NCBI GenBank assembly: GCA_947628735.1
Contig: CANRAY010000004.1
Location: 3,358 to 67,357 of the forward strand
Length of the DNA: 64,000 bases
Source: an uncultured Clostridia bacterium
GTDB taxonomy: Bacteria > Bacillota > Clostridia > TANB77 > CAG-508
Direction: 5' to 3'
A program made the position numbers and the translations under genes. Under the pieces are notes generated by a model that saw only the letters and a list, made by a program, of their open reading frames with translations, searched no databases and was not told where the DNA came from. Below, one piece after another: positions 33,338 to 45,883 of this stretch (position 1 is its first letter; each line of letters begins with the position of its first letter).

Positions 33338-35188
33338 ATGAGTGAACAAGAGAATAATATTCAGAAGAAAAAGGAAAGGGTTGCTAGGCCGAGAACAACT
33401 AAAAAGACTGTAAATAGAACTCAAACTCAAACTAAAACAGCACAGACAGAGGAGGTAAAAGAAGAAGTAAAGAAGACAACTCAAACAAGAAGGAGAACAA
33501 CAAAGAGTACAACTCCAAAGTTTGAATATAAAAGAGATAATTTAAAGATTATACCTTTGGGTGGATTAGATGAAATAGGAAAAAACATTACTGTTTTTGA
33601 ATATGGAAATGAGATTGTTCTTGTAGATTGTGGTTTAGAGTTTCCAGAAGAAGATATGCTAGGAATAGACATGGTTATACCAGATGTAACATATTTAGAG
33701 AAAAATAAAGAAAAAATTAAAGGTTTAGTAGTTACACATGGTCATGAGGATCATATAGGTGCTATTCCATATTTATTAAATAAAATAAATGTGCCAATAT
33801 ATGCTACTAAATTAACTTTAGGTTTAATTAGAAATAAGTTAGAAGAACATAAATTAGCATCATCTACACGATTAATTATGGTGGAACAAGGACAAACAAT
33901 TCATTTTGGAAATATTCGTGTTGAATTTATTAGAAGTAATCATAGTATTCCAGATTCTGTAATGCTTGCAATTCATACACCAGCAGGATTAGTAGTTCAT
34001 ACAGGAGATTTTAAAGTAGACTATACCCCAATAGATGAACAATTAATGGATTTTGCGAGACTTGCTGAATTAGGAAAAATGGGAGTTGTTGCATTACTTT
34101 CTGATAGTACAAATTCTGAAAGAAAAGGATATACAATGTCAGAAAGTTCTGTAGGAGAAGTATTTGATAGATTGTTTATGAATAATCATAAAAGAATTGT
34201 TGTAGCAACATTTGCTTCTAATGTTCACCGTGTGCAACAAATTGTAAATTCTGCTGTTAAATATGGTAGAAAAATAGCTGTATGTGGTAGAAGTATGATT
34301 AATATGATTGAAACAGCAAGAAGTTTTGGATATATAGATGCTCCAGATAATCTTTTTATAGATATTGATATGATTAAAAATTATACAGATGAGCAATTAG
34401 TTATTATTACAACAGGAAGCCAAGGAGAAGCTATGTCTGCTTTAACAAGAATGGCATCAGGAGAACATAAAAAAGTAGAAATTACACCAAATGATATGGT
34501 TATTATTTCTGCTACTCCAATCCCAGGAAATGAAAAATTAGTTTCTAATGTTATTAATGATTTAATGCAAATTGGAGCAGAAGTTATTTATAGTGCCTTA
34601 GAAGATATACATGTTTCAGGCCATGCTTGTCAGGAAGAGCAAAAATTGATTTTAGCATTAACAAAACCTAAATTTTTTATACCAGTACATGGTGAATATA
34701 GACAATTAAGAGCACATGCGGAAACTGCTAAGAAAATGGGTGTTCCAACAGAAAATATATTTATTTTATCAAATGGTAGAGTATTAGAAGTAAATAAGCA
34801 AGAAGCTAAAATTACATCTTCTGTACCATCTGGAAAAATCTTGGTAGATGGATTAGGAGTAGGAGATGTAGGAAATATAGTTCTTCGTGATAGACAACAT
34901 TTATCTCAAGATGGATTAATTGTTATTGTTATGACAATGGATTCAAGTACAGGTGAAATTGTATCAGGACCAGATGTAGTATCAAGAGGTTTCGTATATG
35001 TTCGTGAATCTGAAAATTTAATGGAAGATGTTAAAAAAGTAGTTCGTGATCAAGTAAGACAGTTAGAGGCACAAGGAATTAGTGATTGGTCAACAATCAA
35101 ATCAACATTAAAAGATAATTTAAGAGATTATATTTTCCAAAGAACAAAGCGCAACCCAATGTTGTTACCTATAATTATGGAAATATAG
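33338..35188 (+). CDS. rnj: Ribonuclease J (beta-CASP metallo-beta-lactamase RNase) with a Lys/Thr-rich N-terminal extension
   Basis: HGHEDHIGA motif, beta-CASP motifs and a C-terminal domain. About 60 aa of basic, Thr-rich sequence precede the conserved LKIIPLGG start. Confidence 0.92.
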   Translation: MSEQENNIQKKKERVARPRTTKKTVNRTQTQTKTAQTEEVKEEVKKTTQTRRRTTKSTTPKFEYKRDNLKIIPLGGLDEIGKNITVFEYGNEIVLVDCGLEFPEEDMLGIDMVIPDVTYLEKNKEKIKGLVVTHGHEDHIGAIPYLLNKINVPIYATKLTLGLIRNKLEEHKLASSTRLIMVEQGQTIHFGNIRVEFIRSNHSIPDSVMLAIHTPAGLVVHTGDFKVDYTPIDEQLMDFARLAELGKMGVVALLSDSTNSERKGYTMSESSVGEVFDRLFMNNHKRIVVATFASNVHRVQQIVNSAVKYGRKIAVCGRSMINMIETARSFGYIDAPDNLFIDIDMIKNYTDEQLVIITTGSQGEAMSALTRMASGEHKKVEITPNDMVIISATPIPGNEKLVSNVINDLMQIGAEVIYSALEDIHVSGHACQEEQKLILALTKPKFFIPVHGEYRQLRAHAETAKKMGVPTENIFILSNGRVLEVNKQEAKITSSVPSGKILVDGLGVGDVGNIVLRDRQHLSQDGLIVIVMTMDSSTGEIVSGPDVVSRGFVYVRESENLMEDVKKVVRDQVRQLEAQGISDWSTIKSTLKDNLRDYIFQRTKRNPMLLPIIMEI

Positions 35189-36911: not shown

Positions 36912-36961
36912 TAGCACATAATTATTTTATAAAATAATATGATAGAGAGAAAGAGAATAAA

Positions 36962-37099
36962 TATGGAATATAATGTAGGAGATGTTGTTCAAACTAAAAA
37001 ACAACATCCGTGTGGTAGTAAGCTATGGGAGATAACAAGAGTGGGTGTTGATTTTAAATTGAAATGTTTAGGATGTCGGACATGTTATATTATTAGATA
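36962..37099 (+). CDS. DUF951-family small protein (45 aa)
   Basis: MEYNVGDVVQTKKQHPCGSKLWEI...CLGCRTCYIIR matches the DUF951 pattern as I recall it. Below the ORF-track cutoff. Confidence 0.55.
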
Positions 37100-37152
37100 G
37101 GCCTAAGGCCTTAAAAATGATTGTAAAGAAAATAGAAAATTAAATATTTTAC

Positions 37153-37190
37153 ATTGAAAAGCCCCCGATGCAAAGCACCGGGGGTTTATC
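37153..37190. terminator. Bidirectional GC-rich intrinsic terminator
   Basis: CCCCCGATGC-aaa-GCACCGGGGG (one mismatch), with TTTAT on the + side and CTTTTC on the - side. Confidence 0.7.
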
Positions 37191-37257
37191 GTGGGCACTC
37201 ACAGAGTTACCCGTGGTTGGAAGTTACATGTAATGAGCTTGGGTTATACTTATGCCT

Positions 37258-37518
37258 TCAAGCGTTTCCACGCGAGGCCAGGTAGTAACCACCCAACTCG
37301 TTAGCCCTCTTTTCGAGGGCACTGAAGACGGAAATGCGGCAGCCGATCTTCCAGGTTACCAGAACCTGGTTGCTGACGCGGGACAAGGAACCGTCACCGC
37401 TCAGCGGATGCTGGGCATATGCCACGTTCGGGTTGTGGTTGGCTTCGAAAAGGAAGCTGTCAGCTACCTTTGGATCATCGAAGATGAACCGTGATGCTCT
37501 TTTTACTTGCTTGGACAT
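37258..37518 (-). CDS. Anomalous GC-rich (~55% GC) small ORF (86 aa) of unknown function; could instead be a structured RNA
   Basis: On the - strand it is preceded by a GGAAGGGGGA SD 9 nt before the ATG and a perfect sigma-A promoter, and it is followed by a terminator. Codon usage (CGC, GGC, CTG, AGC) is foreign to this genome. The other - frames contain stops. Confidence 0.4.
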   Translation of the reverse strand: MSKQVKRASRFIFDDPKVADSFLFEANHNPNVAYAQHPLSGDGSLSRVSNQVLVTWKIGCRISVFSALEKRANELGGYYLASRGNA

Positions 37519-37582
37519 TAATCATGTCCCCCTTCCGATAATGTATTTTTTTGCCATACACAAAATGCGTATAACGTATTAA

Positions 37583-37611
37583 ATTATAATATAAAATAGA
37601 GAATAAGTCAA
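37583..37611 (-). promoter_or_regulatory. Perfect consensus sigma-A promoter driving the GC-rich island
   Basis: On the - strand: TTGACT, then 17 nt, then TATAAT. The GC-rich body starts about 55 nt downstream. Confidence 0.55.
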
Positions 37612-37626
37612 GATGTACATTATATA

Positions 37627-38208
37627 TCATATATATTTTTGGATTTCATTCCATACATCTTCAGTGTAAATTTTTCTTTCTGCAGAAAAGGGAAGAAATG
37701 TTAAATCGTGAATAGGATTTAATATCTCTTGTAAATTAGCTATAGCTGAATTGACTTTTGTTATTGCAATCTTATCGGCTTTATTTGCAATAATGAAACA
37801 AGGCTTTCCGTTTCTTATAATATAATCATACATTAATTTATCATTTTCAGTTGGGTTATGACGAATATCAATTAAGAATATTATTAAACATATATTTTTA
37901 CTTGTTTCAAGATATTCCTCAATGAAATGACCTACTTTTATTTGTTCTTCTTTTGACATCTTGCTGTATCCATAACCAGGTAAATCAACAAAATAAAATT
38001 TTTCATCCATATTATAAAAATTAATTTGTCTAGTTTTTCCAGGTTCACTACTTGTTCTTGCTAATTTTTTTCGGTTAACAAGAGTATTAATAAAAGAAGA
38101 TTTTCCTACATTTGACTTACCAACTAAAACAATTTGTGGTAAATTATCATTAGGATATTGAGAAGTAGATACTGCTGAGATTTTAAATTCAGGATTTTTA
38201 ATTAACAT
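37627..38208 (-). CDS. engB: Ribosome-biogenesis GTPase YsxC/EngB
   Basis: G1 motif GKSNVGKSS, G3 motif DLPGYG and G4 motif NKADK. 193 aa. Confidence 0.9.
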   Translation of the reverse strand: MLIKNPEFKISAVSTSQYPNDNLPQIVLVGKSNVGKSSFINTLVNRKKLARTSSEPGKTRQINFYNMDEKFYFVDLPGYGYSKMSKEEQIKVGHFIEEYLETSKNICLIIFLIDIRHNPTENDKLMYDYIIRNGKPCFIIANKADKIAITKVNSAIANLQEILNPIHDLTFLPFSAERKIYTEDVWNEIQKYI

Positions 38209-38213
38209 ATATA

Positions 38214-39026
38214 TTACCTTTCTTTTTCTAATTCTTCTTCTAAATATATATCAATAATATTAGATATATTTTTATTTGTTTGTTGCAATTGTTCATTAAT
38301 ATGTCTTAAATCAGTTTTGGGTGTACGATTAATAAATTGACAAAGAGTGTCTATTGATTTGGCACATAATTCTTGAAAATTTTGCAAATTAGTAAAATCT
38401 GCTAAAAAGGCCTCTTCGTCTAATTCTCTGGTAGCAGTATAATGTATGATTTGTTTTGATAGATTCTGTAAAGTAACACTTGCAGGTATGTATTCAGAAG
38501 CCATAGAATATTTCATAAAATTCTTTTTGAATCTGTCATAATGAAGTTGACTTCCTTCTACAATAGATCCGTCCATTACTACAGGAATAGAATGTTTGGA
38601 TGTATAATAATCACTTATAAGATCTCTTAGTGAGTATAACTTTTGAGGAACAGGGTGATTAGCTATATTATATAAATAATAAAAGTCTTTAGCGGTCATG
38701 AATATAACAGACGAAAAAGTTACTCCTTCTTTATTTGCTAAATATATTCCATCTGGTTGAAAAACAGTATAGGTATTTCCATCTGGATTACTCATGCGAG
38801 AGAAAAGTACAGATAATGTATCATTGCCATCATCACGATATAATGAACAATCTCCATTTGCAAAACAGTATTCCTCAACTATTTTTCTATCATTTACATC
38901 ATATATCATTGTGTCTTGAAAATCGTCTTCTGCAATATCTGAGTATTGCTCCTTACTAATTCCATCAGGAACGAATACTACATCTTTTCTTACGTGAAAA
39001 AAACTATATCTTTTAGATTTATTCAT
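38214..39026 (-). CDS. Hypothetical protein (270 aa), operonic between serS and engB
   Basis: No recognisable motif. Starts 5 nt from engB, and serS is 23 nt upstream. Confidence 0.45.
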   Translation of the reverse strand: MNKSKRYSFFHVRKDVVFVPDGISKEQYSDIAEDDFQDTMIYDVNDRKIVEEYCFANGDCSLYRDDGNDTLSVLFSRMSNPDGNTYTVFQPDGIYLANKEGVTFSSVIFMTAKDFYYLYNIANHPVPQKLYSLRDLISDYYTSKHSIPVVMDGSIVEGSQLHYDRFKKNFMKYSMASEYIPASVTLQNLSKQIIHYTATRELDEEAFLADFTNLQNFQELCAKSIDTLCQFINRTPKTDLRHINEQLQQTNKNISNIIDIYLEEELEKER

Positions 39027-43592: not shown

Positions 43593-43865
43593 TTGGACTT
43601 TAATAGTGGTATTACATTTTTATCATGTATTATTTTTCTTTTATTATTTGGAAAAATTTTTTATCTTCCTTTAAAGCATGTTTTGAAAATTGTTTTTAAT
43701 TCATTATTAGGAGCAATTTTGTTGTTTTTTATTAATGTTATTGGTCAAAATTTTGGATTTCATATTGGTATTAATATTTTAACTGCCTTATGTGTAGGAC
43801 TTTTGGGCATTCCAGGTGCTGGACTGCTTGTTGTCTTACAAGTTATTCTACGGTTACTGATTTAG
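43593..43865 (+). CDS. bofA: Pro-sigma-K processing inhibitor BofA
   Basis: Two-TM 90-aa protein. IGINILTALCVGLLGIPGAGLLVVL matches the conserved BofA C-terminal block. Confidence 0.7.
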   Translation: MDFNSGITFLSCIIFLLLFGKIFYLPLKHVLKIVFNSLLGAILLFFINVIGQNFGFHIGINILTALCVGLLGIPGAGLLVVLQVILRLLI

Positions 43866-45684
43866 CAAGATTTCTAGGCTTATCAACATCTAATCCTTTA
43901 TTCTTAGAAATATAGTATGCTAATAGTTGTAATGGTATAATAGAAAGAATAGGTGAAAGAAGAGGATGAGTTTCTGGAATATTAATTACAAAATCAAAAT
44001 GTGTATTTGGTAAACTTTGATTTGTAATTACTAAAGTTCTAGCTCCTCTTGTAATTACTTCTTGTAAATTACTGATTGATTTTTCTACAAGATCTGGGTT
44101 AGTTATAATACCTATTACTGTAACTCCGTTTTCTATTAATGCAATAGGACCATGTTTTAATTCACCTGCAGCATAAGCTTCAGAATGAATATAAGAAATT
44201 TCTTTTAATTTTAAAGATCCTTCTAGAGCCACAGAATAATCATTTCCACGACCTAAGAAAAACATATCTTTTTGAGTATATACTTTTTTTGCAAATCTTT
44301 TTATTTCATTTACGTTTTGTAGTAAAGTTTCTACTTTTGTAGGTAAATCTAAAATGTTTTCTTTTAATTCTTCTATAGTATTTGTATCACATCTGTCTAA
44401 TTGTTCAGCAAAGTAAATTGCTAGCATAGTAACTAATACGACTTGAGAAGTATATGCTTTTGTTGATGCTACTGCAATTTCAGGTCCTGCATGTGTATAA
44501 ATAGAATAGTCAGCTTCTCTTGTAATTGAACTTCCAATAACATTAGAAATTGCAATTGTTTTAGCATTTTTTGCTTTGGCTAATTTTAAAGCTGCGATTG
44601 TATCTGCTGTTTCACCAGACTGACTAATATAAATACATAGTGTGTTTTCATCAATTAGAGGGTCTTGATAACGAAATTCTGATGCAATATTAACTTCTAC
44701 TGGAATTTTACAAAGCTTTTCAAATACTGGTTTTCCTACTAATCCAGCGTTCATTGCAGTTCCACAGGCCACAATATATATTCTATGAATATTTTGAAGA
44801 TATTCTTTAGATAAGTTTAAATCTTCAAAAGTACATTTTTCTCCAAGATGAAATCTCGAACCAACGGTTTCTCGTATAGCAGTTGGCTGTTCGAAAATTT
44901 CTTTTAACATATAATCCTCGAAACCATCTTTTCCAGCTGCATTTGCATCCCAATCTATATTTTTAATTGCTTTATTATGCTTAACTAAACTAGCATCATA
45001 AAATTCTGTTTTATTTTGATAAATTACAGCGAATTCATTGTCATCTAAAAAGTAAAAATCTTTAGTATATGGTAATATAGCTGGAATATCTGATGCAATG
45101 TAATTTTCTCCATTAGATTTTCCGATAACAAGAGGACTATCTTTGCGAACAACTACAATCCTATCAGGATAAAGTGATGAAATTACTTCAATAGCATAAC
45201 TTCCTTTTAGTTGATTAACAGCTGATTTAACAGCATATAAAAATTTATCATTATTTTCTAAAACATTATGTTCAAAATGATAATGAATTAAGTTTGGAAT
45301 TACTTCTGTATCTGTTTCAGATAGAAAAGTGTATCCATTTTGCATTAGGAAATCTCTTAGTTCATGGTAATTTTCAATAATACCATTATGTACAACGGCA
45401 AATGTATTACTATTGTCCATATGAGGGTGTGCATTTTCCATTGAAGGTTTACCATGAGTTGCCCATCTAGTATGTGCAATTCCTATGGTTCCATTTAAAT
45501 CTTGAATTCCTTCTAAATTATATAAATTATTTACTCTACCTTTATCTTTTTTTACTTGAATTTTATTATCTTCAATGGTAGCGATTCCAGCAGAATCGTA
45601 ACCTCTATATTCTAAAGCCAAAAGGCCATTAATTAAAATTGGTTGTGCTTTCTTTTCACCAATATAACCTACAATTCCACACAT
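43843..45684 (-). CDS. glmS: Glutamine--fructose-6-phosphate aminotransferase
   Basis: MCGIVGYIG N-terminal nucleophile and two SIS domains. 613 aa. Confidence 0.95.
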   Translation of the reverse strand: MCGIVGYIGEKKAQPILINGLLALEYRGYDSAGIATIEDNKIQVKKDKGRVNNLYNLEGIQDLNGTIGIAHTRWATHGKPSMENAHPHMDNSNTFAVVHNGIIENYHELRDFLMQNGYTFLSETDTEVIPNLIHYHFEHNVLENNDKFLYAVKSAVNQLKGSYAIEVISSLYPDRIVVVRKDSPLVIGKSNGENYIASDIPAILPYTKDFYFLDDNEFAVIYQNKTEFYDASLVKHNKAIKNIDWDANAAGKDGFEDYMLKEIFEQPTAIRETVGSRFHLGEKCTFEDLNLSKEYLQNIHRIYIVACGTAMNAGLVGKPVFEKLCKIPVEVNIASEFRYQDPLIDENTLCIYISQSGETADTIAALKLAKAKNAKTIAISNVIGSSITREADYSIYTHAGPEIAVASTKAYTSQVVLVTMLAIYFAEQLDRCDTNTIEELKENILDLPTKVETLLQNVNEIKRFAKKVYTQKDMFFLGRGNDYSVALEGSLKLKEISYIHSEAYAAGELKHGPIALIENGVTVIGIITNPDLVEKSISNLQEVITRGARTLVITNQSLPNTHFDFVINIPETHPLLSPILSIIPLQLLAYYISKNKGLDVDKPRNLAKSVTVE

Positions 45685-45883
45685 AAAAAAACCTCCTTTG
45701 TTATTGTATCATATTACTATAAAAGAAAAAAAGTGTCAAACAAAAGGTGGAAAAGTGCTAAATTTTAAATATTTACGCTATTTTTTATTGAAGAAAGAGG
45801 GGATTTTGTGGTAAAATAGAAAGGTATCAGAGAAATTTGAAGATAAGATCAATTTTAAAAATTGATAAAAATAGAGGAGAAAA

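Follow-up and report, generated by a model that had tools for sequence, protein, structure and literature searches.

The hbs mRNA of Bacillus subtilis, which encodes HBsu, owes its stability to a strong Shine-Dalgarno sequence (SD), an initiating ribosome, a structured 5′ untranslated region (5′UTR) and a 14-bp pairing between the 5′UTR and the 3′UTR (Braun, Durand & Condon 2017, PMC5737220), and the pairing segment of its 3′UTR is located just upstream of the terminator (PMC5737220). The 5′ stem-loop of the aprE leader (Hambraeus 2002) and the STAB-SD (Agaisse & Lereclus 1996) are both cited in that same study as stabilising Firmicute mRNAs. These are the closest described systems to the subject of the present analysis, a compact minus-strand unit at positions 37153-37611 (hereafter the cassette) that carries a small gene between engB and a convergent DUF951 gene in a 64,000-nucleotide stretch of DNA from an uncultured Clostridia bacterium (GenBank contig CANRAY010000004.1; the whole stretch is hereafter the window). 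As a whole, the cassette is probably best explained as encoding a strongly expressed small protein on an mRNA that is built for stability in a broadly hbs-like manner.

The likeness to hbs extends to a monocistronic message for a protein of ~90 amino acids (aa), a strong SD, one or more 5′ hairpins (predicted at the 5′ terminus of the cassette transcript) and a terminator. In both cases a 3′UTR segment located shortly upstream of the terminator and the leader in the vicinity of the SD have complementary sequences, and in both organisms the message faces decay of the RNase J/RNase Y type. However, the proteins are unrelated, with an HU fold for HBsu and a predicted ferredoxin-like fold for the small protein, and the coding region of hbs has not been reported to be compositionally aberrant. 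Moreover, the candidate UTR pairing of the cassette comprises 5-8 bp and is statistically weak, as opposed to 14 bp in hbs. The aprE leader and the STAB-SD are resembled by the arrangement in the cassette, where a stable predicted hairpin within a few nucleotides (nt) of the 5′ end precedes a strong SD, with the structure rather than the sequence being conserved, but there the leader acts on its own, whereas the coding region and 3′UTR of the cassette are GC-enriched and over-folded as well. We infer that the cassette is a variant of a stabilised small-protein mRNA that belongs to no known family.

With regard to base composition, RNase Y cleavage sites are GC-depleted and have weak local structure (PMC11780869), and structured RNAs of AT-rich genomes are known to stand out as GC-rich islands (PMC6429828). 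In the screen of GC-rich intergenic regions (GC-IGR) by Stav et al. (2019, PMC6429828), about one third of the unknown GC-rich regions were mis-annotated protein genes and about one quarter were short open reading frames (ORFs). Such a screen would pick up the present island, but most signals of this type stem from structured RNA, whereas here it reflects which codons a real gene uses.

A protein-coding gene in a GC-rich island

The coding sequence of the small gene has a GC content of 54%, and its 150-nt peak reaches 0.60, compared to a window mean of 0.283 (standard deviation 0.049). From ~0.25 outside, the GC content climbs to 0.49-0.59 in the stretch bounded by SD and terminator, so that the GC-rich island described in an earlier reading of this DNA (hereafter the original prediction), with its abrupt switches at the SD and at the terminator, is indeed present. 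It is the sole island of such GC content in the 64 kb. The runner-up 150-nt patch reaches 0.48 and corresponds to a low-complexity (S/G)DWG repeat (53077-53304) in the N-terminal region of a membrane protein resembling Tim44. At third codon positions, the GC content (GC3) of the small ORF is 0.66, compared to 0.10-0.21 in the 34 other ORFs of the window and ~0.12 in the genome, and an index resembling the codon adaptation index (CAI) is 0.16 for the small ORF versus 0.62-0.80 for the other 34. Among the codons of the ORF, CGG has zero occurrences in the 34 other ORFs, and CTG, CTC and TCC each account for at most 0.5% of the codons of their amino acid in those ORFs.

The original prediction left open whether this island is a small gene or a structured RNA whose stop-poor, GC-rich sequence imitates an ORF. 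In line with the latter, the island is of the kind that structured RNAs are known to form in AT-rich genomes (PMC6429828), both strands contain ORFs of 80-86 codons, in three frames, and folding is strong (z –4.8 for the whole transcript against dinucleotide shuffles). However, the complementary strand folds alike (z –4.6), and this folding test therefore cannot separate an RNA from a protein model. A scan of the whole window with Rfam 15 (including transfer-messenger RNA (tmRNA), RNase P, signal recognition particle RNA, 6S, glmS, OLE, ROOL and raiA) yielded zero matches at the gathering scores, in agreement with the earlier exclusion by eye of tmRNA, RNase P, signal recognition particle RNA and the glmS ribozyme. 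A permissive Rfam scan of 37000-37750 gave only chance-level matches (E from 0.056 up, well below the gathering scores), no Rfam family fitted the island at five related loci, and ARAGORN found neither a tRNA nor a tmRNA in the window.

Comparison with related loci (numbered with the prefix L) was more decisive. A word-indexed protein search with the ORF alone returned two sequences only. The closest relative, L001, is an 83%-identical ORF on a metagenome contig that also carries the end of engB, and both ORFs measure exactly 86 codons. The 47 nucleotide differences between window and L001 are distributed 10/10/27 over the three codon positions (chi-square p 0.002), and 22 of the 37 changed codons are synonymous and 15 non-synonymous (p 9e-6 against an expectation of 25%). 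Codon periodicity recurred in five further pairs (p 9.5e-8 to 0.007). Each of the other frames either is broken by stops in one or both of the sequences or displays mostly non-synonymous change, and the antisense frame that shares the wobble positions has 2-3 stops. Because of this periodicity relative to L001, together with the protein family and the confident predicted fold described below, the small ORF is, as judged from these comparisons, a real protein-coding gene under purifying selection that is translated. Since periodicity and the synonymous excess are confined to the sense frame, the protein family is conserved and its fold confidently predicted, and neither an Rfam, tRNA or tmRNA match nor a conserved, family-wide RNA structure was found, we rejected an ORF-mimicking RNA and give it next to no credence. 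Contamination by vector, plasmid or phage DNA, which had been named as a possible artefact, was rejected as well, as blastn found no match to plasmids or phages and independent metagenome contigs reproduced the locus with engB attached.

A HMMER profile search of 1.84 billion representative proteins revealed relatives of 77-94 aa with 37-53% identity, which share the motifs F..F, QHP(L), VLVT(G.GS) and LGG and are annotated as hypothetical proteins, one of them in a metagenome-assembled genome labelled 'Clostridia bacterium'. AlphaFold predicted a beta-alpha-beta-beta-alpha-beta domain (predicted local distance difference test score 82.6 when based on 2 sequences and 84.5 when based on 11), the predicted topology of which is ferredoxin-like with a four-stranded sheet. 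As anticipated from the letters alone, the protein fits no recognised family: no profile match was obtained in Pfam-A, NCBIfam, PHROGs, PADLOC or the PDB sequences at curated or significance thresholds, with the best Pfam hit at E 0.03 (thresholds of 20-35 bits) and with a few PADLOC hits (best E 0.005), each of which came from a single member. HMA, ACT/RAM, ribosomal protein S6 and RRM are likewise small ferredoxin-like domains, but none has a sequence relationship to the small protein. RRM-related matches were limited to sub-threshold ones in positional homologues (RRM_1, E 0.12; PNMA_N, E 0.034), the RNP1 and RNP2 motifs are lacking, with strand beta3 reading VLVT(G) and not the aromatic motif of the RNP1 type, and no metal-binding CxxC motif is present. 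A consistently basic charge as in nucleic-acid binding was considered and rejected, given that the isoelectric points in the family range from 5.4 to 9.9.

Between the window and L008, the small protein is 49% identical and EngB 83%, and by this comparison the small protein evolves much faster than its neighbour EngB. Sequence searches thus point to an undescribed, fast-evolving family, all known members of which come from one clade of gut Clostridia with low GC content. In a separate comparison, the slot genes of L029 (2020-2256) and L031 (3210-3446) differ by eight non-synonymous and zero synonymous changes, which hints at positive selection although the numbers are too small.

Inheritance in a fixed slot and maintenance of GC content

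The gene order serS-engB-[small gene]-DUF951 (convergent)-gltX-rnj (RNase J) was seen in L004-L010, L013 and others, and every family member with flanking DNA occupies this same slot, with the one exception of L012, in which the upstream context differs. Conservation at the engB-gltX locus, proposed as a check on the original prediction, was thus found in relatives. Scanning metagenome contigs with the EngB protein of the window yielded 80 loci (EngB identity 73-80%), many of them labelled human gut metagenome. The slot was occupied in 33 of the 72 informative engB loci by an ORF of 71-91 aa with a GC3 of 0.36-0.54, compared to 0.08-0.22 for engB, and was empty in the remaining 39. The DUF951 gene follows engB in 18 of these 39 loci (in 17 of them within 34-139 nt), and some empty-slot loci have a different downstream context.

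Only four of the slot ORFs match the profile hidden Markov model of the family, and the others form two groups (alignments A6 and A7). In hhalign, the alignment of each group to the family was collinear (P 8e-4 and 4e-3, each for a single comparison); A6 retains the motifs T(G/D)S..YD and LGG..MP, and A7 has a 5′ hairpin of the ACGC type in common with the family. A direct comparison of A6 with A7 was not significant. The A6 and A7 ORFs are probable positional homologues that have diverged fast.

The abrupt change in composition from SD to terminator, the cassette's own promoter and terminator, the patchy distribution over related loci and the strong divergence of the slot subfamilies (as in the hhalign P values above) might suggest a horizontally acquired phage cassette of the 'moron' type, inserted between engB and DUF951. 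However, the relatives belong to the low-GC lineage only and none were found in GC-rich organisms: no relative outside this lineage emerged from the 1.84 billion representative proteins and 5.8 billion clusters, patterns of family peptides had no match in 185,579 GTDB species genomes, and a first metagenome scan with family peptides also gave no match. The slot is fixed beside conserved housekeeping genes, the promoter and the ACGC-type hairpin are common to different subfamilies, the unit is flanked neither by direct repeats nor by tRNA or mobility genes, and there was no match to plasmid or phage DNA.

Moreover, the GC3 of the gene forms a continuum down to near-host values, from L001 (0.70), the window (0.66) and L011 (0.65) via L015 (0.51) and L008 (0.44) to L013 (0.29), L004 (0.27), L010 (0.23) and L012 (0.22), compared to 0.05-0.24 in neighbouring genes. 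When changes on the window and L001 branches were polarised with L011 as the outgroup, 12 AT>GC changes were counted versus 16 GC>AT changes, where neutral decay from 55% GC predicts a ratio of ~9:1 in favour of GC>AT (p 7e-6). The GC content thus seems to be held up against the AT pressure of the genome, and its odd GC-rich spelling kept by selection. These balanced substitutions and the shared slot in turn indicate an old resident with its GC content held up rather than a fresh import.

We therefore consider a moron-type insertion highly improbable, and the small gene very probably a selected protein-coding gene that was inherited in place. The patchy presence reflects repeated loss of the gene or, less likely, gain. 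Of the 'horizontally acquired, strongly expressed small gene' in the original prediction, the selected coding gene with conserved signals for strong expression remains, but a recent acquisition is contradicted by the same slot, the shared promoter and leader, the GC3 continuum, the lack of a homologue in any GC-rich organism and the maintenance of GC.

Expression signals, mRNA folding and competing explanations

The GC enrichment is not restricted to wobble positions. Codon positions 1 and 2 are enriched as well (0.53 and 0.44), and the 3′UTR has 44% GC versus 22% for the spacer past the terminator. Every family member has elevated frequencies of C-ending, G-ending and four-fold G/C codons, the increase extends to every degeneracy class, and the G/(A+G) ratio in two-fold purine-ending codons is 0.36-0.90 in the family versus 0.16 in the background. 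Translational selection in low-GC Firmicutes favours C-ending (NNC) codons in two-fold families and keeps AAA and GAA. Ordinary selection for NNC codons was therefore ruled out, as G-ending and four-fold GC codons are raised too. With GC enriched in the 3′UTR, in positions 1 and 2 and in all codon classes, the pressure acts on the transcribed segment and not on decoding alone.

All elements that had been read on the minus strand (a strong SD, an 86-aa ORF and a GC-clamped terminator) are present, and so is the TTGACT-17-TATAAT promoter, although its description as a perfect consensus was slightly overstated, since it matches TTGACA/TATAAT at 11 of 12 positions with one mismatch in the –35 hexamer. 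Sites scoring at least 11/12 occur 8 times in the window and 8.4 times in shuffles, so that match quality is at chance level in such AT-rich DNA. Rather than by the match itself, the promoter is rendered credible by its positional conservation in almost all of the related loci examined, with TTGACT-17-TATAAT also being present in L001, L008, L011, L015, L017, L018, L021, L033 and L062. From the promoter spacing, the transcriptional start site is predicted at ~37577-37576. The adjoining hairpin and an SD of the GGAGG type recur with this promoter across related loci: the SD is spelled GGAAGGAGGA in L001, L011 and L008, is GGAGG-type in other loci, and lies 7-10 nt from the ATG in all loci.

The 5′ hairpin of the window (–10.2 kcal/mol, z –4.5 against shuffles) is identical in L001 although the surrounding sequence diverges. 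Of the 20 loci examined, almost all have a hairpin that starts 1-9 nt from the inferred 5′ end (mean z –2.3; L015 and L004 were judged by eye), the stems differ in sequence between loci, and L012 is without a hairpin. In the window, the hairpin is separated from the SD by an AU-rich linker. A second, start-codon hairpin is kept in six members, namely the window, L001, L011 and L012 plus variants in L008 (with a G.U pair) and in L015, where it reads AGACAU/AUGUCU and is thus changed on both sides.

The folding of the coding region was examined by permuting synonymous codons within each gene, a procedure that leaves protein, codon usage and GC content exactly as they are. The resulting z scores were –2.6 for the window, –2.9 for L015, –2.5 for L008, –3.7 for L013, –4.8 for L004 and –3.4 for L010, and among the positional homologues –3.4 for L017, –3.2 for L033, –3.0 for L044, –5.6 for L077 and –2.6 for L062, versus a mean of –0.33 (standard deviation 0.87, minimum –2.2) in 34 control segments from other genes of the window. 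In most family members, the coding RNA folds more strongly than expected from the amino acids and codons that it contains. To this extent the earlier suspicion that RNA structure matters is borne out, but not with regard to a conserved fold.

With respect to the UTRs, the pyrimidine motif ACUUCCAAC in the 3′UTR (with CUUCC at 37222-37218) has the potential to pair with GGAAG (37535-37531), which forms the 5′ edge of the SD. This motif is also present in L008, and L012 and L015 have CUUUCAAAGC instead. Candidate pairings elsewhere are UUGGAAG:CUUCCAA in L008 and UUUGAAAG:CUUUCAAA in L015, and the complementarities display apparent co-variation (GGAAG:CUUCC versus GAAAG:CUUUC). The 5′ and 3′UTRs may thus pair in a manner resembling hbs.

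Combining these elements, the cassette would be a self-contained expression unit for a small cytoplasmic 86-aa protein with a ferredoxin-like fold, the unusual spelling of which presumably serves the mRNA rather than decoding. The near-consensus sigma-A promoter would provide high output, the stem-loop at the 5′ end would block 5′-end-dependent attack by RNase J, and the strong SD would add to a long-lived, heavily translated message. The densely folded, GC-enriched coding region and 3′UTR would leave few AU-rich single-stranded sites of the kind preferred by RNase Y, and the GC-clamped terminator would complete such a message.

A number of observations weigh against this explanation. No significant excess of structure was found in L001, L011 and L012, of which L001 is the closest relative of the window, nor in the positional homologues L018, L021, L029, L031 and L042. 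RNAalifold detected no shared structure in the family codon alignment (energy 0.0), and synonymous sites are not slower than in engB, but if anything faster. Therefore, a folded, GC-rich state would be favoured, and not one particular fold. The UTR pairing scored z +0.6 to –2.4 against shuffles, with the window not better than shuffles, and the comparison of native with locus-swapped pairs was weak (p 0.033). The start codon is enclosed in a small hairpin, and the rarest codons of the genome occur in the gene; at face value, both should lower translation. Furthermore, the cassette is accessory within the clade and dispensable, with about half of the related loci being without the gene, and both 'strongly expressed' and 'stable' are readings of the sequence. 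That GC and structure serve mRNA stability specifically is thus a proposal to which we give an even chance at best.

The same codons allow for a different explanation, in which the rarest of them (CGG, CTG, CTC, TCC, GCC and CGC) tie translation to scarce tRNAs or tRNA modifications and thereby confine synthesis of the protein to certain physiological states. This would parallel the TTA/bldA control of Streptomyces, with the opposite base bias. The low CAI-like index fits such codon gating, as do the use of CGG, absent from the 34 other genes, as the tenth codon in the window, in L001 and in L011, and the GC bias of all codon classes that NNC selection leaves unexplained. However, gating does not require GC in the 3′UTR or at codon positions 1 and 2, the rare codons are not at fixed family positions and are absent in members with a GC3 of 0.22-0.29, and the strong promoter, strong SD and 5′ hairpin suggest high output. 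Gating therefore appears unlikely.

Alternatively, the transcript might both encode the protein and act as a structured regulatory or scaffolding RNA, with the latter role driving its GC content. The folding of the transcript (z –4.8) and its excess over codon permutations in most members are compatible with this, and a hairpin CCAGGUU/AACCUGG of the window still pairs in L001 in spite of third-position changes on both sides. Nevertheless, the lack of a family consensus structure, synonymous sites that evolve at least as fast as those of engB, the absence of an Rfam match and the missing structure excess in L001 make such a dual function decidedly improbable. More generally, it is rather doubtful that the GC3 of 0.66-0.70 arose via transcript-level selection for either a second RNA job (riboregulator, decoy or scaffold) or a rare-codon gate that senses tRNA supply. 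An hbs-like stabilised message remains the explanation we favour for the cassette as a whole.

Layout, surroundings and implications

The features of the cassette and its conserved neighbours are collected in Table 1. The 3′UTR spans ~70 nt between the stop codon and the terminator, and the predicted terminator has a short U-tract of 4 U and is found at the same position in every related locus with sequence 3′ of the gene.

Table 1. Predicted elements of the cassette and neighbouring genes, in coordinates of the window.
Feature	Position	Strand	Remarks
Putative –35 hexamer, TTGACT	37606..37611	-	17 nt from TATAAT; same hexamer and spacing in relatives
Putative –10 hexamer, TATAAT	37583..37588	-	from sequence reading
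Predicted 5′-terminal stem-loop, GUUAUACGC-AUUUU-GUGUAUGGC	37553..37575	-	begins 1-3 nt from inferred 5′ end
SD, GGAAGGGGGA	37527..37536	-	8 nt ahead of ATG at 37518
Predicted start-codon hairpin, GGACAU-GAUUA-AUGUCC	37513..37529	-	6 bp; pairs 3′ flank of SD with start codon; in minimum free energy (MFE) structure
Coding sequence, 86 aa	37258..37518	-	ATG 37518; stop TGA 37260-37258
3′UTR pyrimidine motif, ACUUCCAAC	37216..37224	-	complementary to GGAAG of SD region; so paired in MFE structure
Predicted intrinsic terminator, stem CCCCCGGUGC/GCAUCGGGGG, then CUUUUC	37156..37184	-	10-bp stem (37184-37162) with 8 G-C pairs
engB (ribosome-assembly GTPase)	37627..38208	-	Pfam MMR_HSR1; conserved upstream neighbour
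DUF951 gene	36939..37100	+	Pfam PF06107; conserved convergent downstream neighbour, followed by gltX and RNase J gene
RNase J gene	33338-35188		2 kb from small gene

Some additional observations concern the terminators and surroundings of the cassette. Terminator stems repeatedly hold SD-like and anti-SD-like runs, which were noted for the window (CCCCC/GGGGG), L008 (AAGAGGACC/GGUCCUCUU), L012, L015 (AAAGGAGGAC/GUCCUCCUUU) and L033, and one terminator arm could pair with the SD of its own gene in place of the partner arm. Between the terminator of the cassette and the end of the DUF951 gene, a GC-rich palindrome, AAGGCCTTAGGCCT, with two AGGCCT sites (37101-37116) may be the stem of the DUF951 terminator. 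In L008 (1780-2030), a second promoter copy (TTGACTTTATCTT...TATAAT) directly follows the small-gene terminator and heads a unit of ~200 nt with its own terminator, which could be a duplicated cassette that now makes a small RNA or a tiny ORF. Upstream, a 270-aa minus-strand ORF between serS and engB (38214-39026) has no match in Pfam, NCBIfam or PHROGs and is absent in L004, where serS abuts engB. Finally, no glmS ribozyme was found upstream (45685-45883) of the glmS gene of the window (43843-45684, minus strand) at the Rfam gathering score or in a permissive scan, and in L004 the glmS gene is preceded by a clear glmS ribozyme (77.9 bits).

That a GC-rich island turns out to be a gene is in itself an ordinary outcome (PMC6429828). 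Less ordinary are the GC3 gap of 0.66 versus ~0.12 in a gene that is not foreign, with evidence of selective maintenance, and an excess of folding across a family that has no conserved fold and had not been catalogued. Strongly deviating gene composition is normally read as horizontal transfer, and here it is found in a fixed-position gene common to relatives, which calls for caution with island-calling methods and with screens that treat GC-rich islands as non-coding RNAs. The cassette thus offers a clean natural system in which to test for selection on bacterial GC content or mRNA folding. If a second RNA job or a rare-codon gate were to apply after all, it would amount to a natural 'recoding' of a single gene against genome-wide mutation pressure, for the purpose of regulation. 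For the low-GC gut Clostridia themselves, the small gene adds a new small-protein family without a curated model, and related slot forms, preceded by a strong conserved promoter, appear to be common in metagenomes of the human gut.

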